NCBI GenBank assembly: GCA_963815195.1
Contig: CAWFGE010000020.1
Span: forward strand, 192,001 to 256,000
Origin: an uncultured Planctomycetaceae bacterium
Lineage (GTDB): Bacteria > Planctomycetota > Planctomycetia > Planctomycetales > Planctomycetaceae
Reading direction: 5' to 3'
DNA length: 64,000 nt
Below the pieces are notes generated by a model that saw only the letters and a program-made list of their open reading frames with translations, was not told the origin of the DNA and searched no databases. This document shows, piece after piece, positions 24,761 through 47,376 of the stretch; position 1 is the stretch's first letter, and each line of letters opens with the position of its first letter. Both the position numbers and the translations under genes were made by a program.

Positions 24761-25360
24761 TCAATTTTCCGGGAGCGGGATGATGTTCGCCAGCGGGATT
24801 TCCAAACCGGGAAGGCGCGCGGTCGTGTAGGAGTCGTCCGGCCCGAGTTCTGTTTCTGTAAAGCGGCCCTCTTCCAATCGCAACACGAGCAAGCGGTGTT
24901 CGAAGCGGTCCACGATCACGTATTCCCGCACGCCGATCCGCTCGTATTCCGCCCGCTTGTCTTCGTAATCCCGCCTGCGGTCGGCTGCGCCAGGGCTGAC
25001 GGTCTCGAAAACCAAATCCGGGATGCGATGGGGAAAAGCGGGGTGCTCCTCGTCCGTCTGTAAATAAACGGCGAGGTCGGGGAATCGTTCCGTGTTCTCA
25101 TCAATCACCACCCACGACTCTTCATAGACTTTTTCCACGATTCCCGGATGATTCACCTTGTAAATGACGAGCGGATCTCGGAAGAGATTCGTCGTGTCAC
25201 GGTGGCCTTCTCCCGCGGGTGTCATCAGAACCAATCTCCCATCGATGCGTTCAAACTTCCAGGGCTCTTGGAAATCCGCATCGGCAAACTCCTCGTGCGT
25301 GAGCGCCAAGCCTTCATCGTCTTTGGTGAGTGTCAGTTTGGAAGGGTTTGTTTGACGCAT
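24761..25360 (-). CDS. Uma2 family endonuclease, copy 1
   Basis: PD..PDLVFETVSP..D...K..EY..GV.EY.IVD pattern. Confidence 0.88.
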   Translation of the reverse strand: MRQTNPSKLTLTKDDEGLALTHEEFADADFQEPWKFERIDGRLVLMTPAGEGHRDTTNLFRDPLVIYKVNHPGIVEKVYEESWVVIDENTERFPDLAVYLQTDEEHPAFPHRIPDLVFETVSPGAADRRRDYEDKRAEYERIGVREYVIVDRFEHRLLVLRLEEGRFTETELGPDDSYTTARLPGLEIPLANIIPLPEN

Positions 25361-25476
25361 GGGTCTCGTTAGCCTCCGGTTTCGATGCAGGGAGAATCGC
25401 AAAATGTGGAATACGAAACCTAATCCCGCAGGGTGACGTTTCAGTAGTTTTCCGCGCCGATCATCATCCTAAGGAG

Positions 25477-26076
25477 TCAATCTTCCGGGAGGCAGATGAT
25501 GTTCGCCAGCGGGATTTCCAAACCGGGAAGGAGCGCGGTCGTGTAGGAGTCGTCCGGTCCGAGCTGCGTTTCTGTAAACCGGCCCTCTTCCAATCGCAAC
25601 ACGAGCAAGCGGTGTTCGAAGCGGTCCACGATCACGTATTCCCGCACGCCGATCCGCTCGTATTCCGCCCGCTTGTCTTCGTAATCCCGCCGGCGGTCAG
25701 CTTCCGACTGGCTGACGATCTCGAAAATCAAGTCCGGCACGCGCTCGGGAAATGGCGGATGGTCTCTGTCCGTATACAGGTACACGGTGAGATCGGGAAT
25801 GCGTTCGGTGCCATCGTCAATGATCACCCACGACTCCTGGAACACATGCTCGATGATATTGGGGTGGCTATGTTTGTAGACGGCGAGTTGGTCTCGAAAA
25901 GGTTCCGCGGCGGCGTGATGTTCGAATCCCGAGGGCGTCATAACCACCAGCCTCCCCTTAACACGTTCATACCGCGATGGTCCCTGGAAATCCGCATCGG
26001 CAAACTCCTCGTGCGTGAGCGCCAAGCCTTCATCGTCTTTGGTGAGTGTCAGTTTGGAAGGGTCTGTTTGACGCAT
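25477..26076 (-). CDS. Uma2 family endonuclease, copy 2 (tandem paralog)
   Basis: Same motifs; ends nearly identical to copy 1. Confidence 0.88.
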   Translation of the reverse strand: MRQTDPSKLTLTKDDEGLALTHEEFADADFQGPSRYERVKGRLVVMTPSGFEHHAAAEPFRDQLAVYKHSHPNIIEHVFQESWVIIDDGTERIPDLTVYLYTDRDHPPFPERVPDLIFEIVSQSEADRRRDYEDKRAEYERIGVREYVIVDRFEHRLLVLRLEEGRFTETQLGPDDSYTTALLPGLEIPLANIICLPED

Positions 26077-26223
26077 GGGTCTCTTTAGCCTCCGGTGTCG
26101 ATGAAAGGGAACGCGGCCGAAGGGTGATCCGGGATTCGCGAGGGCACTCCAACCAGTGTACCAGAGACGCCCGTCCGCCGCTCTCGTTTTTTTGTCCGCG
26201 CCGATCCGCGGTTCCATCTCGCA

Positions 26224-28634: not shown

Positions 28635-28709
28635 TGGCGGTGGCTGGGGTCGAACCAGCGTCCATCCGGATAGCGAGCCGGACGCTCTACCGCGCTGAGT
28701 TACGCCGCC
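28635..28709 (-). tRNA. tRNA-like gene or pseudo-tRNA with apparent 8-nt anticodon loop (CUCGCUAU)
   Basis: GGCGGCG-TA-ACTC..GGTA-GAGC-G-TCCGG-CTCGCTAT-CCGGA-TGGAC-GCTGG-TTCGACC-CCAGC-CACCGCC-A; mismatches in acceptor and D stems. Confidence 0.65.
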
Positions 28710-28944: not shown

Positions 28945-29105
28945 TTCCGTCTCTCAGCTTTCACGTTGACTTCATTGGGCGCTTCATCGAAGTATGGAAA
29001 CAGCGCTGGGCAAAGCCAGCCTTCTGCTTTTGGCTCCTCACGGGAATACCACCACCCGCCGAACTCTTCCCGCAGCCGAGTCAGTTTGCGCTTAGCCCGT
29101 AACGG
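28945..29105 (-). pseudogene. C-terminal remnant of a DUF6717-like protein
   Basis: Reads LREEFGGWWY...EGWLCPALFPYFDEAP with no start codon. Confidence 0.45.
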
Positions 29106-29129: not shown

Positions 29130-31493
29130 TCATTTGGCCACGGCATCGCGCCCAAAGAATTGCAGACGCATTGGATTATCCAGCATGGCCTGTTCCACTT
29201 GATCTGGAGACCAAGCACCTTGATGTTGGGAAAACAGGACTCGGCTCCGTAAGGTTTCGCCTTCCAACTCCGGCGGCATGTCGGGCCAGCGGGCAACAAA
29301 GGTGCCCTTCTCCGCGCCTTTGCGGTCCCCCAGCCAGCTTGGGGCCGCGCCCGTCTTGGAGAACCACTCTTTCACCCGGTCCACATCCTGGTGCTTTCCA
29401 GGCGACCAATGATTTTTGTGGAGCTGTTGCCAAAGATTTCTTTGTCCACACTTCGCGGGCTTTGCGTGCAAATCAAGCACGAAACTCCAAACTTTCGCGC
29501 TTGGGAAAACAACCGAATCAGGGGTTCCTTGGCCGGTGGCTTTGAAGTCCCCGCGGGAACATAATCTCTGGCTTCATCCAAATAGAACAACAACTTCGGT
29601 CGCCCCTCGGTCGTTCCGGTGGCGATCATCCAACGATATACCTCGGCGGCGACCGATGCCACCAGAAACTGTTTCTCTTCATCGCTGACCATCGCATTCA
29701 GATAAATCACATTCAACGGCACCTTTCCCGGTTGAACTGGCGCATTAAGAACATCCATATCCAAAGGCACTCCCCCCTCGAAAAGGCTGGCTGAGGGACC
29801 AGAGCCGAATGTGTTCAAGGTGTGCGCGAGTTTTTCCCGCTCTGCTTTCTTGATGAAGAAATTGGCGTCCTCGATCCCGACCGACTCCGGGGAGAGCAAG
29901 GCGGAGAGAATGTCGTTGAGCTTCAGTTCATTCGAGTGTTCGCGGGGCAGCCGTTTCAAGATTTGGAACAGAAAGTTCTGTTGAGATGGCTCTTCTCCCC
30001 CGATGGAAGCCAGGCTCACGAGATTGTTGGCGACGTTGGTCAGCATGCTCTGCTCTTCCTCTTCACGCCGTGCCTCCGATGGCAAGTGTTCCAGGTCCTG
30101 ACTGCCGGGCAGTCGAATCGGATTCAGGCTTAATCGAATCGCGTGCGATGTTCCGGGCGTAAAGATGCGGGTTTCGACCTTTTCGCAAAACTCGCGCGCC
30201 AAACTTCGCCATTGGGCATCCACCGATTCCGGGGCGTGCTGGTTCAAAAATTGAACCAAGTCCCCCTGAGGATCGATCACCAGTGCCGGGATTCCGTTGC
30301 GAACCGCTTCCTCCGCGATGCATTTCGCCATCCAGGTCTTGCCGCTGCCCGCCGCTCCCACGACCGCCACATGAGTTTTGAGAACATCGGGATTCAGCCT
30401 GACAATCTGCCCGCGCTTCCCCAATACAAAGCTGGCCATCGGTTCTAGCGGGTTCAGCTTCCTCGGGTTGGGTGTTGTCCTCACGAGAATCCGGAGCGGT
30501 TTTCGTCGTCTCCTCGCTCTCCGGAATCGGCGTGACGTCCACGGTGGGTTCTTCGGCGGAGAGCGGGGTTTCCGTCCAACCGTGAAGCCGGTCTCCCGCG
30601 TCCTTGGCCCCCAAGCGGCGCTCGCATTCGTTGGCGTTGTTCCATCGGCAGGTGCCGCAAAACTCGGTATTGCCGATCGGCTTTAAGCCTTCCCCGGATT
30701 TCTCATTGTAGCGGACCCATTCCGCCATCGATGCCAATAAATCGTAGACCTCGTGTCGCTTCGCATAGACTTCCTCCCAGCGCATTTCGTGCATCACACG
30801 CTGAGGATGCAAATAAAGCACGGCCACGTCGGGCTTTGTCTGATGCTGATGATGGTGCATCAAGGCATAGGTCGAGACCTGAAACAGGTCGTTCGTCGGT
30901 TGATGAGAGGGCGTCAATTTGTAGTCGAGGATGCGATGGCTCTCCGTTCGCCAATCGAAAAAGACATAATCCAATGCCCCCGTCACATGAACCGGCTCGC
31001 GATTCGGACCGACGTGAAACGTCACATCCACGCGCTTGCGGATGTCTCCGAACAGATTTCGCACGATCTCCGTCGGGGAGAGTTCCAGCGATTTTGCGTA
31101 ATGGATAATTCCCGCCAATTCGCGAACATAAATTGCCAGAGCACGGATGAAAGCCTGCCGAAGAGGAATCGGCTTGGACGCGAGCTTCTCCAGATTTACG
31201 CAGTTGCGGTTGATGAAGATTCTCAGCTTCTCTTCGATTTTGACTTCGCTGTCGCCCTGCCGGACAATGGCGTCCACATCGGACGAGGTGCGGGCGATGT
31301 GATTGAACTTTTCGACCGCTTGATGAAACAGCACCCCGCCCGCCGTGGTTTCCGCATCACCGTCCTTCCAGATTCTGGTGACCCTGGGCGTCGTCAGCTT
31401 CTTTCTTTGGGTCCATTCCGAATCGAAGTAAAGAATTCGGGGACACGAGGCGGCAACGCGAACCTGCGTCACCGTAAAATGCACGGGCAACAT
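29130..31493 (-). CDS. PD-(D/E)XK nuclease fused to a HerA/DUF87-type ATPase (frameshifts near 30420 and 29390)
   Basis: CPR, G.LFH, GALD..ILDYK, Q..TYA, CxxC..C; then HVAVVGAAGSGKT, IDPQGD, LDEA, ARKFG..LICTQ. Confidence 0.8.
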
Positions 31494-31513
31494 AGCGACC
31501 CCAATTTATCCGC

Positions 31514-33853
31514 TTATTTTTTGAGTTGGAGAAACAGTCCGTCTTCGTATGTGTCGGCGTACAACTTGCCCTTTTCGTGCATCTGAATGGCGACGGTTTT
31601 GATCTGCCGGTGGGCTTCTTCGTGGTCCAGCGTCTGGTTCACGAGATTCCTGAGCACGACCGTGGCGATCGCGCTGGTTGTCAACCCCAGCCGCAAGCCC
31701 AGTTCCCCACGAATGATGGTCTCAATCTTCCCGGAGTCGAGTTGAACCGTGGGGACTTCCGGGGGAGCGTCCCCATCAGTAGGATCGGTTTCCGTGAGCA
31801 GTTCCCGCAAAATGGGTTGCTTTCGGAAGAGATCCTGGCGATGCAGGGATTCAATCACTTCTTCCGCGGTGACTTGCCGAGTCTTTCCCGGCGCAAATTC
31901 GATTTCAAAATCGTTGCTCCGGGCCTGGCCGATGACCATTTCCAAAGCGTCCAGCTTGGCATGGTCCTCGAAATTCATTTTCAAGTGGCGAAACGCATCC
32001 GTACCAAGGCTGACAAGGCTGTCGTAATGTTCCTGACCTTTGGCTCCCAGGGAAAAGTTGCAGCGCGAGTCGGTGACCAGCAGGCGGTGATCCAGCTTCT
32101 TTTTCACATCTTTGAGTTTACGAAGCGATGCCGCCAGGGACGTGGCGTTGTCGGTCGTCAACACCGCCAGGGCATTGAGGATGTCTTTTGAGCCCCGGCC
32201 GTTGTCCACCCGTTCCAGAACTTCGAGATCGTAAGACGGACGAGCGTTGTTTTTTCCTACGATTCGCTTGTGCGAAACCAGAGTGTAAAGATCCGTTCGC
32301 GGCTCGCAGTAAGACAATAAATTCTCCAATAGGGTGGAAATGTTGTCGCTATCCGGCGGCAAGCTGCCCTTGTTCAGATGCCGTTTCTGGATGCTTTCTT
32401 CGATCTTCGCGCGCACGGCCTTATCAAGGAGGGATTGTTCGTGCTCTTTAGACGCGGGTTCTTCGGGCAACTCCGAATCCCCGGGAACATCGGGAGGAAA
32501 GCCGATCCCCCATGTCTCGAACCACTTCTCCACGCCCAATTCCCTCAACCGGCGTTGCTCGACACGCCAGGCATTGTGCGCCCAGTTGATCACATCCCGC
32601 GGTCGGGCTTCCAGGATATTCCCCTGTTCGATTTTTTCCCTGTACCATTTCTCGCCGATCGGAAAGAAAGGATCGGCTTCGATGGCCGCATCCACTTCGG
32701 GAATCGGCCCGCGGAAACCTTGCTGAAATTCTTCCAATCGCTGCCTGATGATCTCGGCTCCGTCCGGTTCCACCGGAATCCGCGCCAGTTGGAGGTGATC
32801 GCTGCCTGTGTCCTTCGATTCCCCGAATTTCGCGATCCGGTCCCAGGCGGCTTCGGGAATAATCCCGTCCGTCTTGAAGCGAAGCAGCGTCTCTTGCACG
32901 CCGGACGTGATCAAGAGCAGATTGGGAGCATGATCGATCAAAGCATGCAGGAACCGAGAGAATGCCTTCACCTGCTCTTGTTTCAAATTGTCGAACTGGT
33001 CGATGCAGATAATCAGCGGAGTATCCGCCAAAGCCAACAACCCGGAGAGGGTGAGCAGAACTCGCTCGCAGTGAGACTCATCCGCCAGGCCGTAATACGA
33101 TGCGCCCTCGTCTTGGAGACGAATTTCCCGCAGGCCGACGATGGGCAAATCAAAACGTTCCGCCGCTTCGGGTTCGATGAGTTCTCCCGATAAGAAGTTC
33201 TCGATCATTTGAATCTTTGCCCGGCGCTCATCAGGCGATTTTTCCTTGCCGTAAATCAGCTTGTTGATGCTGCAAAAGTACTCGATCAGCAAGTCCCGGA
33301 CATGCAAATTGTCGGAAATCTCATTTGTAAAACTCCGAAGCGCTTCCCGGCATTTGGATTCTGTTGTCGGCAGGGAATATCCCCGTTCCTTCAAGGCGGA
33401 CAGAGCCACCTTCTTGAGGGCTTTGTACAACCGGCTGGACGTATAATCGGCATTTTTTTCCCGGCGGGAAAGAATGCTCATCACCACGCGCAGGAAATAA
33501 TACGGCAATCGTTCCGGCGAGGCTTGCACGTTGTGGAGGAAAACATAAACGGCTTCGTGCTTCACCGCCCAGCGGTATAGGCGGGACAGCAAATGGCTTT
33601 TCCCGACGCCCGCACCGCCCAAAATCATGGCTCCGACCCCTTGTCGACCCGCAAGGGTTTCCGTGGCCAATTCGACAAGCAGGTCGAATTGCCGCCCGTG
33701 AATCGATTCCACATCCACATCATAGTCGGAGGGTTCATTCACGCGGTTTGAGGAAAACGGCTTGCGATCCAAAAGGGCCGCCGCAAAGTCCTCCAACGTC
33801 AGAGGCCCTGCCGAGTGAAAGCTGCCTTGGGGTTTTGGATTCATGGTGTGCAT
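31514..33853 (-). CDS. P-loop AAA-type ATPase with a long C-terminal extension
   Basis: Walker A GGAGVGKS, Walker B IICIDQFD, PRDVI. Confidence 0.8.
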   Translation of the reverse strand: MHTMNPKPQGSFHSAGPLTLEDFAAALLDRKPFSSNRVNEPSDYDVDVESIHGRQFDLLVELATETLAGRQGVGAMILGGAGVGKSHLLSRLYRWAVKHEAVYVFLHNVQASPERLPYYFLRVVMSILSRREKNADYTSSRLYKALKKVALSALKERGYSLPTTESKCREALRSFTNEISDNLHVRDLLIEYFCSINKLIYGKEKSPDERRAKIQMIENFLSGELIEPEAAERFDLPIVGLREIRLQDEGASYYGLADESHCERVLLTLSGLLALADTPLIICIDQFDNLKQEQVKAFSRFLHALIDHAPNLLLITSGVQETLLRFKTDGIIPEAAWDRIAKFGESKDTGSDHLQLARIPVEPDGAEIIRQRLEEFQQGFRGPIPEVDAAIEADPFFPIGEKWYREKIEQGNILEARPRDVINWAHNAWRVEQRRLRELGVEKWFETWGIGFPPDVPGDSELPEEPASKEHEQSLLDKAVRAKIEESIQKRHLNKGSLPPDSDNISTLLENLLSYCEPRTDLYTLVSHKRIVGKNNARPSYDLEVLERVDNGRGSKDILNALAVLTTDNATSLAASLRKLKDVKKKLDHRLLVTDSRCNFSLGAKGQEHYDSLVSLGTDAFRHLKMNFEDHAKLDALEMVIGQARSNDFEIEFAPGKTRQVTAEEVIESLHRQDLFRKQPILRELLTETDPTDGDAPPEVPTVQLDSGKIETIIRGELGLRLGLTTSAIATVVLRNLVNQTLDHEEAHRQIKTVAIQMHEKGKLYADTYEDGLFLQLKK

Positions 33854-33896
33854 CCCGGTCCAATGTTGCCTGGAAGCGAAAGGGAGTCGGTGCGGA

Positions 33897-34872
33897 CTAC
33901 AACCTCGAAATATAGATCAGGAGGGAATCGCCTTCACGAATCCCCGCTGAGCGGTCTTCGGGGGAGAGTTGTTCGTAGTTGCCGTCGGAACTGTTCGCCG
34001 TGAATCTCCGCTCTTTGCGGAGCAGCCAAACCCCGCGATCGAACGTCGGCCGATCGAACTCCGGCAAGGCTGTGCGGAGATCGGAAAGCTTCACGAAATT
34101 ATGCGATCCCCTTTCCCGATCCAATAGGGAGAAGACGCTCTCAAACCTCGTGGCGAAATCTTCCTCAAGAACCGGCGACGGGGATTCTGTAACGGAAGCA
34201 ACACTCGTAGAGGCCGGTTGTAACTCCGTCGCTGGAAGGGATTCGACCGAGGAATCACGAGCGTCGGAAATAACAGGTTCATTCGCCGCGCGCATGGGGC
34301 GAATATCCACAATGCGGAAAACATAGTTCGTCCGAGCATCTTTGGGCAGATAACCCACGCCTTCAGGAAGCGATTCGTCCTTCAGACGAGCATTCAGGGT
34401 TTGTTGGAATATCTTATTGAAATCGGCGGTGCCCGTTAAATGGTCCTTTCAGTTCGGCAACTGTAAACAACCGGCAATTCCCGCTTGTGGCCAACTCGAA
34501 GGCAAATCGCAACAACTCGTCGCTTGCCGCCAATTGAGCAATGTCTTCTTTGAGGCAGACATAAGCATCCAACCGGCGTGGAGCGTGCTTTTTCGATCGG
34601 CTGGAAATCGCAACCACCGCATGAGCATCAAAGCTCTTTTTCCCAATACTCTTCTTGATCACCGCTGTATCGGAAACACCGCATCGCAGAGCTAACTCCC
34701 GGACCGTGAGGGGAAAGGGACCGTTTCCGGTCTCCTTCATCGCCCGCAACTCCGCAAGCATCCGTTTCGCAAGTTCTTCGACCTGTTTGGCCTGTGAGGT
34801 TTGTTTCTTTTTTGGGGGCGGTTCAGAAGAGGGAGATACGATGGAAGAAGGGGAATCGGAGAGCGTTGTCAT
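33897..34872 (-). CDS. Hypothetical protein with predicted winged-helix-like domains (frameshift near 34432)
   Basis: Two ORFs join on removing one G; LTVRELALRCG and VKLSDLRTALPEFDRPTFD segments. Confidence 0.6.
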
Positions 34873-37397: not shown

Positions 37398-37644
37398 GAG
37401 GGACTCCTTCTAAAGCCGGGGAACGCATCAATCAGCACCAATGTATCGGGCTGTGGCCGTGCCCGCAATCTTCATCCCCAAAACCGAGAATAGCTCCCGT
37501 TTTTCAACCGCTTGTCTTGCCTGCCTGGAAGGACCAGACGGGATCGCGTTTCTTTGGGAAGAATCATCAAAATGGGTACCACGGTCGGTGCTTCACGCGC
37601 ACCACGCGACCCTTCCAAGCAGTGATCCGCAATCATTGATTTTA

Positions 37645-38010
37645 CGTTTCAGACATAAGGGCGACGCTGGAGATCAGGTTCTGCTGAATGCGGGTTTTGG
37701 GGACCTCCAACACCGGCGTGTGCCCGATCGGCGCATAGCTCGCGCCGATCTGGTCTTGAACTCGCGCCCCTGTCTCGTCCGCGAAATGCAGCTGACCATC
37801 TTCTCTTTCCGCCTTTTTTTCCGCCTCAGGCAGAGTCTGCTCTTCAAATTCCCGCACTTCGTCCGGGTCCTGTTCACGGGCGTGACGGGCCGGTTTTTGG
37901 GGCGTCATCTTCCAGCGATGAAGATAATTCCCGACGCCTTGCTCCGACAGATCAATCTCGTAGCGTTTCCAAATCAATGTCTGGACCACGTGTCGCGTCC
38001 AAGTCGGGAT
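37645..38010 (-). mobile_element. IS630-family transposase remnant
   Basis: WT...LHRWKMTPQKP...EQD and FADE motifs; truncated at both ends. Confidence 0.75.
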
Positions 38011-38388
38011 GGGAATCGCATACACGTCGGGAGTCGCGTCTTGCAGGAACAGATGCGGACTGTCGAGGCCACATGTACTTGAGGAGTCGCCAGGGAATCT
38101 GGGGAACATTAAATGATCCTCCGCCGTAGCGAAACGTTCCGTCTGAGGCGGGTCCGTCATTCACTACCCGAACATCGGACTGGTCGATTTTCGTGAAGGT
38201 AACGAGGTTGCCGCTTGAGGTTACCATCATTGATGATTGACAGTGTTCCTCGAAATAATCCAACTGCTCTCGTTCCCGCTGCTTTAGACGCTGGAATTCC
38301 TGCCCGGTTGCGCCAGACACGTCATCGAGTGTTGGCGGACTTGCCTCGCCAAAATCGTCGCCCAATAAGTCGTCACGATCTGGACGCG

Positions 38389-39660
38389 TCATTGGTGTGG
38401 CTCCCCTTCCTGCTCGTTGACTTCAGTTTGACCGTCGTTGGTTTTTTCAAACGGGAACAACCAGTCCCGTACAACATCGACAACAGCTTGCAGGCGTCCA
38501 TTATCGAACCCTTCACGGTACACTCCACTCATACTATCGTCAACGTGCCCCATAACGGCTTTGACTGCCGGCAGGTCGCCCGACCGTTCCCCGATCGTCT
38601 GGAACGTGTGACGCAGTGCGTAGAAGTTCAGCCGACCGCGTTTGAGTCCCAACTGCTCCAACAACTTCCTGCACTCTTGGGCGACGCTATCAATCGACAT
38701 GCCCCGTTTCGCCTTGTCTTCGCTCGCGACCGTCCGCACCCAGCGATTGCCGTACTTCGTCAGAAAGCACAGATCGGCGTCGACTTCGTCCTTCGGTTCC
38801 GGGCGTTCTGCAATCGCAGAACGCAGTGCGGAGACCGTTTCGGGCCACAACGCGCAGCGACGTTCCACGCCCGTTTTCGGCCTTGGAAAGTTAATGCAAG
38901 CGGATTCCAGATCGACTGCGGATAGAGGCAAATTGGCGATGTCGGATTGACCGAATCCGCAGTTGATGCCCAATAGAATCATGGCCTTCAGAGGAACGCC
39001 TGCGGCGTCGATCATCGCCCGGAGTTCGTGGGCCTCAAACGTTCTCTTCCCATTAGCGGCCCTTGCTTGACGCAACGTTTTCTTGCTGGGCTTGTTCAGA
39101 CTCTGCCCGTAGCGAACGGGCCGATCAATCAGGCTTTGATCGTAGGCATACTTGAAGACCATCCGGCATCGGCCAATCTCGTTGCCCAGTGCGACCGGAC
39201 CGCGTTTCTCCGCCAAGGCTTCGCGGAGGTTTTCAAAGTGATCGGGGATCAGATCATCAACCAGATGGTTTTGCCCGAAGACCTCAACGAGGTTTTGGCA
39301 GGTGCAATAGTAATCGCGGAACGATCTTTCCGAGAGTTCCCCCGTCTTCATCTTTTTGCTTTTGCTGGTCAGAAACCGATTGCAGAGATCGGCGATGGTA
39401 ATTCCGCTCTCATCTTCCGGGGGCAGGCCTTTGGGGGGGTTGCAACCGTTCCTAAGGATATAATCCTTTTGGAGTGTGTAGGCGTCCAGTGCGGCCTGCC
39501 AGTCGGACGCATAGCCGAAGTAAAAGCGTTTGCCTTTGATCTTCTTGTAAAGGCGTCCCGAGGGGGGATGATGTGAGAGGGGAAATTCGGGGTAGGGTTT
39601 TTCCCAGCTTGGGCTGGATACTTTACTGCCGGATGCCGATTGGCTAGACTTGGTAGGTAT
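38389..39660 (-). CDS. Tyrosine recombinase/integrase
   Basis: KKIKGKRFYFG arm domain, RPKTG, FYALRHTF, MGH..MSGVY; start uncertain. Confidence 0.9.
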   Translation of the reverse strand: MPTKSSQSASGSKVSSPSWEKPYPEFPLSHHPPSGRLYKKIKGKRFYFGYASDWQAALDAYTLQKDYILRNGCNPPKGLPPEDESGITIADLCNRFLTSKSKKMKTGELSERSFRDYYCTCQNLVEVFGQNHLVDDLIPDHFENLREALAEKRGPVALGNEIGRCRMVFKYAYDQSLIDRPVRYGQSLNKPSKKTLRQARAANGKRTFEAHELRAMIDAAGVPLKAMILLGINCGFGQSDIANLPLSAVDLESACINFPRPKTGVERRCALWPETVSALRSAIAERPEPKDEVDADLCFLTKYGNRWVRTVASEDKAKRGMSIDSVAQECRKLLEQLGLKRGRLNFYALRHTFQTIGERSGDLPAVKAVMGHVDDSMSGVYREGFDNGRLQAVVDVVRDWLFPFEKTNDGQTEVNEQEGEPHQ

Positions 39661-39690
39661 GATGCTCACCTCGCAACATCGACCATAGGT

Positions 39691-39793
39691 GGGTGTCATT
39701 GACACCCGGCAGGTGCTTTCTGCTGGGTGTCTCACGTCACCTGCAATCGTATCAAATGGGCTTGCGGGTGTCGAATCAGCAAAAACGGGTGTC
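39691..39793. promoter_or_regulatory. Five GGGTGTC motifs including the palindrome GGGTGTCA-T-TGACACCC; candidate integrase binding sites
   Basis: Copies at 39691, 39701 (inverted), 39725, 39766 and 39787. Confidence 0.5.
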
Positions 39794-39870
39794 ACTGACT
39801 GGCCGTTTAGGTGCTGAAAAGAAGAGCAAACAAGAAGAAAACCCTTAAAACCAAGGGTAAAACAGTTCCA

Positions 39871-39944
39871 GGCGGTGTAGCTCAGTTGGTTAGAGCAGCG
39901 GAATCATAATCCGCGTGTCGGGGGTTCGAGTCCCTCCACCGCTA
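39871..39944 (+). tRNA. tRNA-Met(CAT), elongator-like; CCA not encoded
   Basis: Full cloverleaf with GCGGA-AT-CAT-AA-TCCGC anticodon arm and TTCGA T-loop. Confidence 0.95.
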
Positions 39945-41166
39945 CTTTTGTACACTGCAATAGATCGTGATACTTCGCAAACGCTTGATATGTCACGACT
40001 TGCGAGTTTCCGGAATTCGACGGTTTCGACCGATTTCGAGGAGTTTCGGTCGACTGCTGCATCGGATTTTGCAGCGCTTTCGCGAAGTGGGCATCGGTCA
40101 CCTGCAGGTAATGCTTGGAAGCGATCGCCTGGGAATTGCCGATCCAGGCACAGACCACATGCGAGGGAAATTCTTCCTCCAATTCCGTTTGGCGGGTGCT
40201 TCGCAGGTTCTGAAACAGCTTCGGCCATTTCTTCACGCCGGCCCGTTTTATAATGCGCTCCAATTGGGTTCGCAAGTTCGTATTCGAATCACGATAACGG
40301 GTAATGACAAACTCCGCCCCTGGTTTCGCGAGTTGCTTGCACTCTTCCAAAAACGGTCGAAGCTCTGGAAAAATTGGAACCATCCGAGAATCGCCACCAG
40401 CGTGGTGCTCCGTCTTCGGGCTGCTCACCCGAAATCGTCCGGTTTCCCAGTCAAGGTCTTCCCATCGCAAGCCCAAATGCTCCGACGGGCACCGCAGACC
40501 CCCGTACCGGCTCAGGGCGAAGATCAGCCGCCATTCTGCATCCGGACAAGCCGCGATCACTTTTTCGGCCTCTTCCTGTGAAATAAAGTAAAATCGGCTG
40601 GGGTTCGGCTGAACTGTGGATTTCAGATCGGCGAAGGGGTTTGTGGGGATCATCTTCTTGCGGAGAGCCTTGGCGAAAAACTGCTTAGCGATGGCGATAT
40701 GCTTTCGGACGGTGTTTTCGGAAAGTCCCTTCGTTACCATCGACAGCCGCCAATCGTCGGCATCGCCTTCGTTCATATCGCGAAGACTACGTTCGCCACC
40801 GAAGAATTCGACCATTCGGTCGCGAGTAGTTTTCAACTTTTTGATCGTTCGTGGCTTCAGATCCGCTCGGGATTCGAGATACGATTCCAAAAACTCTTCG
40901 AGGCGAGCGGATTCCGGTTTTGGAATCAGCCCCACGCGGGCAAGGCGTTCCGCCAAGCCAAGTTCCAGTTCGGATACCCACCGAGCGGTTTCGGCATCAA
41001 GGGCGTGTCCGGAAAACTTTGCAGATACCAAATGCTCCACTCGAAGCTTGACAGCCTCTGCTTGCTTCTGCGGCATTTTCCCCAAGCGGATTGTGCGGCG
41101 TTTGCCATCGGGGGCAACAAATTGAATCTCGCGACGCCCGTTCGGATGACGAGTGATACTGGCCAT
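39904..41166 (-). CDS. Tyrosine recombinase/integrase; 3' end overlaps tRNA-Met antisense
   Basis: GGLRCPSE, SPKT, FQNLRST, WIGNS..IASKHY. Confidence 0.92.
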   Translation of the reverse strand: MASITRHPNGRREIQFVAPDGKRRTIRLGKMPQKQAEAVKLRVEHLVSAKFSGHALDAETARWVSELELGLAERLARVGLIPKPESARLEEFLESYLESRADLKPRTIKKLKTTRDRMVEFFGGERSLRDMNEGDADDWRLSMVTKGLSENTVRKHIAIAKQFFAKALRKKMIPTNPFADLKSTVQPNPSRFYFISQEEAEKVIAACPDAEWRLIFALSRYGGLRCPSEHLGLRWEDLDWETGRFRVSSPKTEHHAGGDSRMVPIFPELRPFLEECKQLAKPGAEFVITRYRDSNTNLRTQLERIIKRAGVKKWPKLFQNLRSTRQTELEEEFPSHVVCAWIGNSQAIASKHYLQVTDAHFAKALQNPMQQSTETPRNRSKPSNSGNSQVVTYQAFAKYHDLLQCTKVAVEGLEPPTRGL

Positions 41167-41255
41167 TGGGATTCCTTTTCTGCAACACACCCATCACGAC
41201 TGACTGAGGATTTTAACCGAAACCGCAGCGTGACGGAGCAACTAAGGTGGATAAG

Positions 41256-41489
41256 CTATGAAGTGGGGTCGAAATCTGCATTGCGTTTGGTTCGATTAAT
41301 CCAGGCCCGCAGGTCTTCTGGGTCATACAACACGCGATGGCCAATCGGCACGTGTGGGATAGTGCCGGCCTTGGTCATCGTCCAGAGAGTGCGTTCGGAA
41401 ATACCCAACGCTTTGGCGGCAGTGCGGCAATTCCAGAGGAGTGGCGTTGAGAACCCAAAGGAATCGTGCGAAGAGGATTGAGTTGTCAT
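41256..41489 (-). CDS. Excisionase-like HTH protein
   Basis: AAKALGISERTLW..G.IPHV.IG.RVLY..EDL..W. Confidence 0.85.
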   Translation of the reverse strand: MTTQSSSHDSFGFSTPLLWNCRTAAKALGISERTLWTMTKAGTIPHVPIGHRVLYDPEDLRAWINRTKRNADFDPTS

Positions 41490-41631
41490 GGGACAAGAAT
41501 TCAAAAAAGCCACGAAACGGTTTCCACGCGGGAAACGTTTGTGGCTTTGTTGCTTCAACGACCAGTATAACCGGGGAAAGCTCTCCGACAAGTCCCTAAT
41601 TTGAAAAAATCGGCCGTTGGAGTTTGCCGGG

Positions 41632-42106
41632 CTATGTCGCCGTGCCGGGATACCTCGAATTGGTTTCCAATTCCAAGACCCGCTGATCACCGAGAAAGGT
41701 GGCGTTCATGAATTGAAGGAAGCCGTAATACCCCAGTAAGACATAAGGCAAGGGAGCAGTGGAAAGGCCCACAAGCGCCGGCCAGCGCCAAACCGACGAG
41801 CCGCTTGCCAATTGAAGCTCCACGTCGGCAAATCGGAGCGGATAGGCGGTGCCCCGCCAGCGGAGAACATGGCCCGCGTCCGGGCGGAGTTGGGCTCCGA
41901 TGAGGAAAGAGGCATCTAAAGGAAAGATCGAATCTTGGGCTCCCGTATCGACCAGCGCCTTGGAAAAGGGGAGAGATGAGGCCGGACCAATGATCCGAAC
42001 ATCAATAAATGGCCGCCAGATTTGAGTGACGCCCGTGGGATGCGAGGCGATCGTCCTCCGGCGGCCCGGTGATTTGGACAGGCTGGTAGGGATAGCGCAG
42101 GCTCAT
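41632..42106 (-). CDS. Retropepsin-like aspartyl protease (one frameshift near 42050)
   Basis: RPFIDV.I, ALVDTGA and LLGY.GFL motifs; ATGA overlap with the upstream gene. Confidence 0.75.
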
Positions 42107-44364: not shown

Positions 44365-47300
44365 ATGCGCCGGCTCATACTACGATCGTTTCAAAGTCCG
44401 GGCGACATTGTGATGCTCACTGCGGCGGTGCGCGATCTGCATCGAGCCTATCCCGGCCGGTTTGAAACCGATGTTCGCACCTCCGCACAGGATCTTTGGG
44501 AAGGGAATCCGCTTATCACCTCTCTGCGGGAAGTGGACCGCGGGGTGGAATGCTTCGACATGCAATATCCGCTGATCCACCAAAGCAATCAACGTCCTCA
44601 TCACTTTCTGCACGGTTTTATTCAATACCTAGAACGGCGGCTAAGTCTCACAATCCCCGTGACGGATTTTCGCGGGGACATATATCTCACCGACGCGGAA
44701 AAACGATGGGGCGATTTGCAAGAACAATTCAATCTTCCCGAGCGCTATTGGATTGTTGTGGCCGGGGGAAAATACGATTTCACGGCCAAATGGTGGAACC
44801 CGGCCTCTTATCAAAGAGTCGTTGACCATTTTCGATGTGCTCTCAATTTCGTGCAGTGCGGAGAAGCGGGACATTGGCATCCCCCGCTAGACGGCGTGCA
44901 AAATCTCGTCGGTCAAACCCGCCTGCGGGATTTACTGCGGCTGGTGTATTTCGCAGAGGGCGTTTTGTGCCCGGTCACGTTGGCCATGCATCTCGCCGCC
45001 GCCGTGGAGCGTCCCCCAAACTGGCCTGCCCTCCGTCCCTGTGTTGTGGTGGCCGGCGGGCGAGAACCGGCTCACTGGGAAGCCTATCCTGGCCATCAAT
45101 TTCTTCACACAGTCGGGACGTTGGACTGCTGCGCCACGGGAGCCTGTTGGCGTTCGCGTTGTCAAACGGTGGGGGACGGCGATGCCAAAGATCGGTGCAA
45201 CACCTGCGAAAAGCCAGTTCGGGTTTCCGAAGACCTCTCGATTCCCCAGTGCATGGAAATGATTTCCTCAACAGACGTGATTGCAGCCATTGAGCGATAC
45301 CAGATCGAGTCACCAACCTCCGCGCCATCTCGGAACCGTGGCATTGCTGTGACGCCTCGAATCCCGATTCCGCCAATGCCATCGCTCTGCAATGCCAATC
45401 ATGCGGAACAGGCTCGCTTCCTCATTGATTGCCGTCAGGCTGAACTGGACCGGCGTGCTCTCGAAGTCGTGTTGCGCCATTTGCACCACTATTACCCCAG
45501 TCACGACGTTGACGTTCTGGTCAACCAAAACGATTCATCAGCAGTGGACTGCCAGGGAGGGCGATTGCTTGTCGCGGGTTCGGACGCGGTGACACATCAA
45601 GGATACCGTCAGGTTTTCCAAATGGATTGGCGTCCCTGTGAATACGAGCCTCCTCAATTTCTGAATACACCCGCGACACGCTGTTTGCTGGAAGATTTTC
45701 ATCTCACACCGATCCCGGATTTGTTGCTTACCTCTTCTGTGCCTTTTAAGGACGCTCCGCCCATGCCATACACGACAATTCAGCCAAGCGACAACAATCC
45801 TTCGGCTGTGGTTACAAAGAAAGCTGGGAGAAACCGCAAAACGACGCCGCTTAGCGTGCGGTTTTATCATGGACTCGGAGATTGTGCATTTTTTTCGCAC
45901 TTGATTCCGCTCTATCTCCGCCGTGGTTACGAAATCCAAGTCGAATGCACGGCCGACAAACGGCTATTATTTGAAGCCGCCGGGGCCAAGGTGATCGGAA
46001 CAGGAGGTCGAGACGACCATCCGTGGGCCTATCCAGGGGAAGACCTGCGTCCCGTGCATGGCCGGTTCTGGCAGGGGAGCAAGCCCGCCCACAATCTCTC
46101 GCAATCTCCGCTTCCATCCATCGGCAGCCAGGGGGAATTGTGGAAAGAGTATTGTGAAGAACGGATCGATATTCGGACCCATCTTGCCGCGAAAGCTTTG
46201 AAAACCGCAGAGCGCTGGCTGTCCGGGCTTCCTCGCCCGGTAGTGCTGCTTCATACGAAAGCCAACACGTCCCAAGCCAGAAAAAGTCTTCCTGACCGGA
46301 CCACGCTGGATTTCTACCGGGCGCTTTTGGACCGAATGGAGGGATCAATCATCCTCTTGGATTGGGACAACCGCGTTCCCCGGGTCAATTCCTGGCGAGT
46401 CCGCCATCTTGACGATCTGGGCGATTGCCCCACCGAAGTTCTGATGGCCCTGATGACACAAGCCGACCTTCTCATTGGCGTCGATAGCGGCCCCTTGCAC
46501 GTGGCACGATTTACCGGGATTCCGACCGTCGGCGTGTGGATGCCCGGGCACTACCCGGCCCGCTACAGCCTTCCCCGCCATGAACAACTCAATGTTGTTT
46601 TGGCAGAACCGACGGCCCAATGGAATCGCTTTAAGCGCATTCCTTGGAACATTGTCGAGCATTCCGGAAATACCTTTGAAGCCAGTCAATTGGCGACTAT
46701 CTGCGCCCGCATGCTCGGAACTGCTTATTACCTCGATTGGAACGACATCGCAGCCGACATTCAACTGCAGCAGTTTGTCGGGCAGTATTGCCGAGGCCGG
46801 ACCGGCCAAGGCCTTTCGGATGATGTTGACCGGCATCGCAGCTTTGATCGGCTGCTCAAGGAAACCACGCGACGCTTTCCCGATCCGACCATTGTGGAAA
46901 CAGGGACAATTCGGGCTGCCGAGGATTGGAACGGGGCTGGTTTTTTCACCTACTTGGCGGGGACCTATCTCTTCCGCCGGGGGGCGGGGCGACTGCACTC
47001 GGTGGACACCAATCCGCAATCCTGTCGGTTCGCAAGAGAGGAAACGGCGGTGTTCGGATCAGTCGTGCAAACCCACCAAAGCGATTCTGTCCGGTTCTTA
47101 AAACAATTCACCGAGCCAATCGACGTGCTGGTTTTGGATTCCTTGGATACCACGGAAGCAGGTCATGCCGAACATGCCCTCCGCGAGATTCAAGCCGCGG
47201 CGAACCGGCTCCACGAACAAAGCCTGGTTGTATTCGACGACACCCCCTGGAGTCGTGGCCGCTGGGTCGGCAAAGGAGCCCTGGCCGTGCCCTGGCTGTT

Positions 47301-47376
47301 GGAACGGGGCTGGAAGCTTCTCTACGCCGGGTATCAGGTGATCCTGGAAATGAACCCCGCGAGCACCGGTTCCTGA
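44365..47376 (+). CDS. Multidomain protein: GT9 heptosyltransferase + GT9 + class I SAM methyltransferase
   Basis: SPGDIVM, NLVGQT.LRDL, MHLAAA; HGLGD, IGVDSGPLHVA; IVETGT, LHSVD, IDVLVLDS. Confidence 0.85.
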   Translation: MRRLILRSFQSPGDIVMLTAAVRDLHRAYPGRFETDVRTSAQDLWEGNPLITSLREVDRGVECFDMQYPLIHQSNQRPHHFLHGFIQYLERRLSLTIPVTDFRGDIYLTDAEKRWGDLQEQFNLPERYWIVVAGGKYDFTAKWWNPASYQRVVDHFRCALNFVQCGEAGHWHPPLDGVQNLVGQTRLRDLLRLVYFAEGVLCPVTLAMHLAAAVERPPNWPALRPCVVVAGGREPAHWEAYPGHQFLHTVGTLDCCATGACWRSRCQTVGDGDAKDRCNTCEKPVRVSEDLSIPQCMEMISSTDVIAAIERYQIESPTSAPSRNRGIAVTPRIPIPPMPSLCNANHAEQARFLIDCRQAELDRRALEVVLRHLHHYYPSHDVDVLVNQNDSSAVDCQGGRLLVAGSDAVTHQGYRQVFQMDWRPCEYEPPQFLNTPATRCLLEDFHLTPIPDLLLTSSVPFKDAPPMPYTTIQPSDNNPSAVVTKKAGRNRKTTPLSVRFYHGLGDCAFFSHLIPLYLRRGYEIQVECTADKRLLFEAAGAKVIGTGGRDDHPWAYPGEDLRPVHGRFWQGSKPAHNLSQSPLPSIGSQGELWKEYCEERIDIRTHLAAKALKTAERWLSGLPRPVVLLHTKANTSQARKSLPDRTTLDFYRALLDRMEGSIILLDWDNRVPRVNSWRVRHLDDLGDCPTEVLMALMTQADLLIGVDSGPLHVARFTGIPTVGVWMPGHYPARYSLPRHEQLNVVLAEPTAQWNRFKRIPWNIVEHSGNTFEASQLATICARMLGTAYYLDWNDIAADIQLQQFVGQYCRGRTGQGLSDDVDRHRSFDRLLKETTRRFPDPTIVETGTIRAAEDWNGAGFFTYLAGTYLFRRGAGRLHSVDTNPQSCRFAREETAVFGSVVQTHQSDSVRFLKQFTEPIDVLVLDSLDTTEAGHAEHALREIQAAANRLHEQSLVVFDDTPWSRGRWVGKGALAVPWLLERGWKLLYAGYQVILEMNPASTGS

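Follow-up and report, generated by a model that had tools for sequence, protein, structure and literature searches.

Identification of the three-gene system

The 64,000-nucleotide stretch of contig CAWFGE010000020.1 from an uncultured Planctomycetaceae bacterium (GCA_963815195.1), hereafter the window, carries on its minus strand three closely spaced genes (29130–34872; intergenic gaps of 43 and 20 bp), encoding a tandem winged helix-turn-helix (wHTH) protein (gene 1), an Orc/Cdc6-type AAA+ ATPase (gene 2) and a PD-(D/E)XK nuclease joined to a HerA-type motor (gene 3). This trio is real and probably intact, and it adds a new member to a class predicted by computation, the Orc/CDC6-coupled HerA/FtsK capture systems of Rakesh, Aravind and Krishnan, 2024 (PMC10853773). 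It was present in a single copy in this genome and its G+C content was 0.53–0.56, against approximately 0.60 for the contig. The individual features are detailed in Table 1.

The passages of PMC10853773 that describe the class list an Orc/CDC6 ATPase with an inactive restriction endonuclease (REase) domain before its C-terminal wHTH, an active REase and a HerA/FtsK motor, which comes either with FtsK-alpha or with a 4-helix insert, as well as a fast-evolving protein of 2–4 wHTH domains in a subset of systems; interception of invader DNA is proposed there as the function. The Orc/CDC6 ATPase, its C-terminal wHTH, the active-type REase, HerA, the multi-wHTH protein and the existence of FtsK-alpha sisters were all shared with the trio, and on account of this match the trio was assigned to the class. 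A preliminary description of this DNA, made from the sequence alone, had regarded the architecture as distinct and uncharacterised; that view was not upheld, since the same domain set and arrangement are given in those passages. On the other hand, Cas4/RecB, planctomycetes and myxobacteria have no mention in the available part of the main text, and the four-cysteine nuclease sub-branch was found here. The wHTH counts reached approximately 8 in the present data, and docking of the wHTH protein on the ATPase is absent from the passages on the class. The docking prediction, the co-occurrence of the ATPase C-terminal wHTH with the nuclease-HerA protein and the lack of the usual defence-island setting are the new elements. 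Literature searches, to which most subscription journals were out of reach, retrieved no experimental test of the class.

Conservation and distribution

GTDB genomes were scanned for relatives of the ATPase; 132 were confirmed and 79 loci retained for counts. Their hosts were Planctomycetota, Myxococcota (14 Sorangium), two delta-proteobacterial bins and two Pseudomonadota bins. Gene 1 was found upstream in 66/79 loci and the nuclease downstream in 50/79, all 50 of the latter also having gene 1 upstream. The trio was thus complete at 50 loci, spanning Planctomycetota, Myxococcota and one Chromatiales bin, so that conservation of the three genes as a set, left to be checked in the preliminary description, was borne out. 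Nuclease, HerA and tail formed one open reading frame (ORF) in 41 of the 50 loci; four were cut by a contig end and five were split, three of them in the linker. The proposed fusion of the effector to HerA is hence genuine. Intact examples in cultured organisms with public accessions were detected in Sorangium cellulosum So ce56 (sce5406–sce5407) and Tundrisphaera TA3, to which the natural ATPase-nuclease-HerA fusion of Roseimaritima multifibrata can be added.

A profile search for the ATPase yielded 464 representatives at E ≤ 1e-30 and 1958 at 0.001. In the family to which this genome belongs, the profile was matched in 22/151 genomes and closely in 7, this genome included; in the family that includes So ce56 (genome G534), it was matched in 15/121 and closely in 5. 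Across 400 further genomes of the phylum, no copy of the nuclease turned up. Among nine representatives chosen for unusual length, natural fusions were observed of ATPase, nuclease and HerA (P0165/P0295, 1581 aa, with a member of the P0165 cluster in Roseimaritima multifibrata), of ATPase and HerA (P0148, P0200) and of HTH, EAD1 and ATPase (P0159).

Sister systems with another motor were also recovered. A conjugative plasmid of Pseudanabaena carried the same three genes with FtsK-alpha and FtsK replacing HerA, its proteins matching the trio profiles with probabilities of 98.6 (ATPase), 99.1 (nuclease) and 81.4 (gene 1). An FtsK gene lay downstream in 10/14 distant loci of the own family (14 of 15 obtained), including a complete trio of the same genus, and the sisters L091 and L118 had FtsK_alpha plus FtsK. 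In the ATPase tree (FastTree, 96 rows) the FtsK types fell on one side of a well-supported branch. The nuclease of the FtsK-type trio of G462, of the same genus (L118:6293-11292), was devoid of the four cysteines, as were those of L116 and L124, while the cyanobacterial FtsK type L091 retained them. A two-gene variant was observed in Methylobacterium (L092:9263-13191) and Nonomuraea (L093:9230-13257), consisting of a short wHTH gene and an ATPase-HerA protein of approximately 1100 aa; no nuclease of this family was detected in either.

The Orc/Cdc6-type ATPase

The 779-aa ATPase of the preliminary description was recovered as an intact ORF with both of its motifs, Walker A (GGAGVGKS) and Walker B (ICIDQFD), and matched Pfam AAA_16. 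In the alignment, numbered after the 776-aa form P0001, Walker A, R336 and R416 were invariant. The AlphaFold2 (AF2) model had a predicted local distance difference test score (pLDDT) of 88.8 and a predicted template modelling score (pTM) of 0.88. Its top fold match was Cdc6/Orc1 2qby_B (Z 15.8, root-mean-square deviation (rmsd) 3.5, 238 aligned); the other top folds were further ORC/Cdc6 chains and ShCAST TnsC, tied within 1 Z, MuB, and BrxC with Z 14.6.

Residues 499–642 were modelled as an alpha/beta domain with the succession helix-strand-strand-strand-helix-strand-helix-strand, which is a REase-like order of elements. D539 was kept in 63% of rows and strand 3 contained no (D/E)xK, and the domain is considered a putative inactive REase on the basis of the model. 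An Atlas search with it returned unnamed clusters only. Foldseek alignments of the ATPase to Nt.BspD6I were discounted, being long and poor with rmsd >20, and no other fold match was named REase.

The C-terminal wHTH, assigned from secondary structure, was modelled as three helices with a hairpin at the C-terminus. The nuclease was encoded downstream in 49/54 loci with this domain versus 1/18 without it; seven further loci without the domain were left out, as too little downstream sequence was available. The loci are kin and not independent, and for this reason no p-value is given. A stand-alone clade of ATPases without the C-terminal wHTH, gene 1 or nuclease was also observed (L063, L065, L073, L074, L076, L078 and L079), mostly in Gemmataceae bins.

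The nuclease-HerA protein

Gene 3 had been described as a cysteine-bearing PD-(D/E)XK nuclease joined by an acidic linker to HerA, and this was confirmed by matches to PF12705 (PDDEXK_1; 5.7e-13, above the cut-off), PF01935 (DUF87; 6.5e-14) and PF05872 (HerA_C), as well as weak matches of the nuclease to Cas4 profiles in PADLOC (1.5e-06). C17, C279, C282 and C290 were invariant in 29/29 aligned nuclease domains and likely hold an Fe-S cluster. The catalytic residues were D175 (29/29), D190 (27/29), K192 (29/29) and Q205 (29/29), and their conservation points to an active-type REase.

The protein, of approximately 790 aa, contained only nuclease, linker and HerA. No FtsK_alpha match was obtained for the HerA of the window or of L002. 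The distance between Walker A and Walker B was 258 residues in the window HerA and 255–261 across 28 proteins, compared with 100 in three FtsK-type sisters, a spacing from which an insert of approximately 160 aa was deduced. The best PDB sequence matches of the motor part were solved HerA structures, and the NCBIfam profiles for anti-phage HerA were matched weakly (approximately 26–28 bits versus cut-offs of 800–850).

The winged-helix protein and its predicted contact with the ATPase

No family in Pfam, NCBIfam or PADLOC was matched by gene 1, whose pieces in the window corresponded to single ORFs in relatives. The AF2 model of the orthologue L034 (pLDDT 86.9) showed three domains. The last one was a wHTH best matched by that of RPA2 (Z 8.5, rmsd 1.5, 62 aligned), with many wHTH ties, and the first matched a La-motif wHTH (Z 7.5); a single Foldseek match below 0.001 was retrieved, to an RNA polymerase III chain. 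Among the matches listed for the gene 1 folds, none linked it specifically to DndG, SspB or FokI. The window protein had the domain order W1-W2-C. Median pairwise identity was 0.22–0.24 for the N-terminal domains versus 0.43 for the C-terminal wHTH, and the N-terminal wHTH-like domains varied in number among relatives. Two orthologues (L110:2073-4304 and L109:10489-12360) were expanded to approximately 6–8 wHTH-like domains, beyond the published 2–4.

The complex of the gene 1 C-terminal wHTH and the ATPase, both from the window, was predicted with a separate alignment for each. The score was 0.75 versus 0.01 for the best of three controls, the runs agreed in at least 89% of contacts and the partner pLDDT was at least 84. 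This mark was reached by 116/157 solved complexes and 2/215 mismatched pairs; for the alignments used here these counts are only a rough guide. On the ATPase the predicted contacts involved the Walker A loop (76–78), the residues after Walker B (285–286), sensor-1 (316–324) and the segment before sensor-2 (408–417), and ATPase E412 (77% conserved) was placed against wHTH R56 (95%). The prediction supports docking of this wHTH on the nucleotide face of the ATPase; resemblance to some solved complex of the ORC or BREX type may contribute to it.

Integrity of the reading frames

Three-frame translation located three frame breaks, near 34445 in gene 1 and near 30411 and 29389 in gene 3. Both of those in gene 3 had been noted in the preliminary description and were confirmed; the one in gene 1 had been missed. 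Public DNA run X1 contains about half of the sampled words of this sequence. Relative to the assembly, its contigs gained one base at 29389 and two at 30411 and lost one at the gene 1 break (at 34444 in one contig and at 34447 in another), each change restoring the frame that relatives lead one to expect, and a 395-base contig bridged the nuclease-HerA junction (30325–30717) with 0 substitutions. Given these three frame-restoring indels, the frameshifts are probably assembly errors. The read support is good but not final: depth was below 5, a single contig underlies each indel, and X1 may itself be the source sample. Contigs of runs X2 and X3 gave no coverage of the trio, and none of the runs listed as containing it was an RNA run.

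Ongoing decay of the window copy into a pseudo-operon, or an arrangement in which nuclease and HerA are separate genes, was considered. Of 74 genes of the assembly that were compared, one was gene 3; apparent frameshifts were counted in 7 of the 73 others, or approximately 0.1 per kb with a method that undercounts, and the three in 5.7 kb of the trio exceed this background; the frame was also broken in 5/50 related nuclease loci, in three of these within the linker. However, indels restoring the frame were found at every one of the three sites, the catalytic motifs are all intact and the nuclease-HerA protein is a single ORF in 41 loci, which makes decay or separate genes a very improbable explanation.

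Proposed function and alternative explanations

HerA rings pump double-stranded DNA (dsDNA), Fe-S nucleases of the AddB/Cas4 type act in resection, and the nucleotide face of an AAA+ protein normally receives the neighbouring protomer. The chances are judged about even that the trio is a stand-alone, methylase-free module for the capture of invader DNA, of the Orc/CDC6-HerA/FtsK class. In such a module, recognition of target DNA, or of a DNA structure specific to the invader, would fall to the variable wHTH domains in the N-terminal part of gene 1, and the C-terminal wHTH is predicted by the model to bind the nucleotide face of the ATPase. Since that face is normally occupied by a protomer, the wHTH would either hold the ATPase off or nucleate and cap its oligomer on DNA, in the manner of TniQ and TnsC. 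Co-occurrence and natural fusions suggest that the ATPase would then recruit the nuclease-HerA protein through its own C-terminal wHTH, and, from what is known of these families, the HerA ring would pump dsDNA past the Fe-S PD-(D/E)XK nuclease. Plasmid or phage DNA would be destroyed or, failing that, the host chromosome, as in an abortive response. The point-by-point match in architecture, the conservation of the trio, its patchy presence, the turnover of flanks, the exchange of HerA for FtsK, the fast divergence of the sensor, the fusions and the complex prediction speak for this function, and with them it stands at roughly equal odds of being correct.

Several results weigh against the capture function. 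No nuclease was present at 29/79 loci (seven of them with too little downstream sequence); gene 1 was present at 16 of these, from which it follows that the wHTH protein and the ATPase can persist without an adjacent effector. Apart from the FtsK branch, the ATPase tree broadly tracks host taxonomy (Isosphaeraceae-rich, Myxococcota and Sorangium groups; FastTree). The trio is kept in 14 Sorangium genomes with 86–95% DNA identity, a retention that in our judgement is more stable than that of many defence systems. The interface residues of the wHTH were no more conserved than the remainder (0.62 vs 0.59), and no mechanism for separating self from non-self is evident. Finally, the flanks did not resemble defence islands. 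Flanking genes of relatives were called by a crude composition score, with up to three neighbours per side; 36 loci gave 171 proteins, which were truncated to 500 aa. Pfam matches of 141 of these proteins (28 loci) were mostly metabolic or housekeeping. At 1e-10 PADLOC profiles were matched by 11/86 flanking proteins, only one over its full length (PDC-M56A) and the other ten through generic domains. Enrichment in defence islands, which had been proposed as a check, was therefore not visible in the flanks, for which there was no background control.

Because this context is unlike that of defence genes, repair and mobility or transfer retain some probability. The trio could be an accessory machine for DNA repair or the processing of DNA ends. 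Resection of breaks or stalled forks would then be carried out, similarly to NurA-HerA or AddAB, by the HerA motor with its fused AddB/Cas4-like Fe-S exonuclease, loaded by the ORC/Cdc6-like ATPase under guidance of the wHTH protein. The four invariant cysteines of a Cas4/AddB-type nuclease, a family with a role in resection, would suit this role, as would the broadly vertical tree, the retention in Sorangium and the lack of defence neighbours; it is nevertheless rather unlikely, as the trio is missing from most sampled relatives, its motor is exchanged between HerA and FtsK, and a repair system would not usually have sensor domains that change so fast in sequence and in number. A non-autonomous cassette for mobility or DNA transfer, with a TnsC-like ATPase and a TniQ-like wHTH selector, a nuclease cutting donor DNA and a HerA/FtsK pump moving DNA between cells or sites, was considered unlikely to a slightly greater degree. 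It would explain why TnsC and MuB rank level with Cdc6 in the best fold matches and why close relatives have different chromosomal flanks (among the 14 Sorangium loci, homology mostly stops at the trio edges), and it agrees with the sister trio on a conjugative plasmid, the G+C content below that of the host and the truncated DUF6717 gene at the edge of the trio. Against it, the trio has no recurrent partner among transposases, integrases, relaxases or membrane channels, and no terminal repeats or target duplication surround the window copy; a patchy presence with variable flanks is combined with a largely vertical tree and no ends. No more probable than such a cassette is a bacterial equivalent of ring loading by ORC/Cdc6-type proteins, in which the tandem-wHTH selector would plug the open ATP face of the ATPase with its last wHTH, and this wHTH might contribute a conserved Arg or Glu in trans (R56, E84, R94). 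A HerA or FtsK ring carrying the Fe-S nuclease might then be loaded interchangeably, although this too is a doubtful prospect. The position outside defence islands together with vertical retention in myxobacteria and planctomycetes would then suggest a standing, modification-independent role in DNA surveillance or chromosome processing, as opposed to classical phage defence.

The capture hypothesis is directly testable, owing to the cultured hosts and to a specific, mutable sensor-ATPase contact. If defence is true, the trio would reveal the means by which a restriction module lacking a methylase separates invader from self; if it serves repair or transfer instead, the published interpretation would have to be revised.

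Ten genomes whose ATPases have no adjacent nuclease were searched for an unlinked nuclease-HerA. Only G664 had one, at its second, complete trio; eight had more distantly related HerA domains with none of this nuclease in the sequence covered, and one had no HerA. HerA-domain proteins of 570–980+ aa related to this HerA branch were also observed in genomes with orphan ATPases (L136–L145), one of them (L137) with a further weak match to the ATPase profile.

Comparison with known systems

In PADLOC v2 no specific system was matched. The top profile of the HerA part, mad8, was rejected as non-specific, since this generic P-loop profile was matched in 14/14 control genomes and at 88 places in this genome. 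The module of ATPase and nuclease recalls MAD7-MAD8 of MADS, a system described as requiring MAD6, MAD7 and MAD8 (10.1101/2023.03.30.534895; PMC13662399, in the parts available). The trio, however, showed no mad6 or mad7 match and no conserved mad6 kinase, methyltransferase (MTase) or HsdS neighbour; kinases were present in some flanks, not as a fixed neighbour.

DndFGH and SspFGH share with the trio, according to the passages of PMC10853773, a HerA/FtsK motor fused to a REase and a triple-wHTH partner, and the FtsK-type sisters match SspH profiles through the motor. They differ in that DndF is a P-loop kinase and DndH, of approximately 1700 aa, includes inactive SF2, MTase and TRD domains, as far as those passages describe them; the window gave only a weak match to DndH at the level of Walker A (1e-05). 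Sir2-HerA (Nezha) and DUF4297-HerA likewise combine a HerA motor with an effector, and anti-phage HerA profiles are weakly matched, whereas in the trio the effector is fused to HerA and an Orc/Cdc6 ATPase and a wHTH gene are added. Neither a separate Sir2 or DUF4297 effector gene nor a HerA equivalog above its cut-off was found in the trio.

BREX and the BREX-related capture systems (BRC) have in common with the trio an ORC/Cdc6-type ATPase, the fold of BrxC being among the top matches, and a multi-wHTH protein, to which BRC adds HerA/FtsK. PglZ and other genes are further parts of BRC in the available text of 10.1101/2025.10.09.681413, and PglZ, the STAND partner, MTase, GNAT and TGT were not conserved with the trio. 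The trio does not show the features that define DndFGH, MADS, BREX, Sir2-HerA or DUF4297-HerA. In Tn7/CAST elements the target selector TniQ caps the filament of TnsC, an ORC-like AAA+ protein (10.1101/2021.05.25.445634, in part); the likeness to the trio, in which TnsC is among the top folds of the ATPase, is an analogy only, and the trio is without transposase or ends.

Genomic context

The position of the trio in a tRNA-adjacent island, as previously described, was only partly supported. A tRNA-like gene lies nearby, but the trio is 5' of this odd gene and not at its 3' end, and approximately 1.5 kb of host-like G+C content (DUF1501 gene, 0.63–0.68) separates it from the integrase/tRNA-Met region at 38.4–41.2 kb, whose integrases and tRNA-Met start approximately 3.5 kb beyond the trio. 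The DUF6717 fragment directly behind the HerA stop suggests a likely remnant at an old insertion or rearrangement edge.

As had been stated in the preliminary description, no DNA methylase or PglZ was found among 13 neighbours scanned in the window (24.7–47.4 kb), the rest of the genome not being searched. Neither family occurred in the 141 flanking proteins of relatives scanned with Pfam or in recurring clusters, and clustering of all ORFs disclosed no further family recurring across unrelated taxa, large paralogous families (e.g., kinases) excepted. Promoter and terminator signals showed no excess over shuffles. The search for an empty site failed, as two genomes of the same genus lose synteny just upstream of the DUF255/YyaL gene; neither the trio nor that tRNA was present in their next 17–18 kb, and one of them, G462, has its FtsK-type trio elsewhere.

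Table 1. Coordinates of the trio, its domains and adjacent features in the window.
Feature	Position	Strand	Remarks
Gene 1, tandem winged-helix protein	33897..34872	-	~324 aa read in frame; frameshift near 34445
Gene 1 conserved C-terminal wHTH	33900..34157	-	Median pairwise identity 0.43; predicted ATPase docking
Gene 2, Orc/Cdc6-clade AAA+ ATPase	31514..33853	-	779 aa, intact; AAA+ core, REase-like domain, C-terminal wHTH
Gene 2 putative inactive REase-fold domain	31919..32350	-	aa 499-642 of 776-aa form; model topology
Gene 2 C-terminal wHTH	31523..31735	-	aa 704-774; model and co-occurrence with nuclease-HerA
Gene 3 N-terminal Cas4/AddB-like PD-(D/E)XK nuclease	30594..31493	-	PF12705, Cas4 profiles; four Cys
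Gene 3 variable acidic/Pro-rich linker	30413..30593	-	Alignment; frameshift ~30411 at HerA end
Gene 3 C-terminal HerA-type ATPase and conserved C-terminal tail	29130..30412	-	PF01935, PF05872; frameshift ~29389
DUF6717 gene 3' fragment, outside the system	28959..29087	-	PF20475 positions 65-113 of 115, E 2.2e-4, below gathering cut-off
tRNA-like gene, 8-nt anticodon loop, outside the system	28635..28709	-	ARAGORN tRNA-???; Rfam RF00005 46.5 bits; single copy in genome

Two more tRNAs with undetermined anticodons were present in the genome (C16, C21), and the tRNA-like gene may accordingly reflect an assembly indel or a degenerate tRNA; no run contig showed an indel at it. A contig of run X1 had one base fewer at 28950, near the DUF6717 fragment. 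Two tandem, near-duplicate genes of the Uma2 endonuclease family (PF05685) were located at 24761–26217 on the minus strand. The region 37642–41690 contained an IS630-like fragment (HTH_33), an excisionase-like HTH_17 gene and two tyrosine integrases, one on each side of tRNA-Met (39871–39945), and low-G+C DNA extended to approximately 55 kb. Within this low-G+C region, a protein of 1003 aa that combines GT9 glycosyltransferase and Methyltransf_24 domains was encoded at 44365–47376 on the plus strand.

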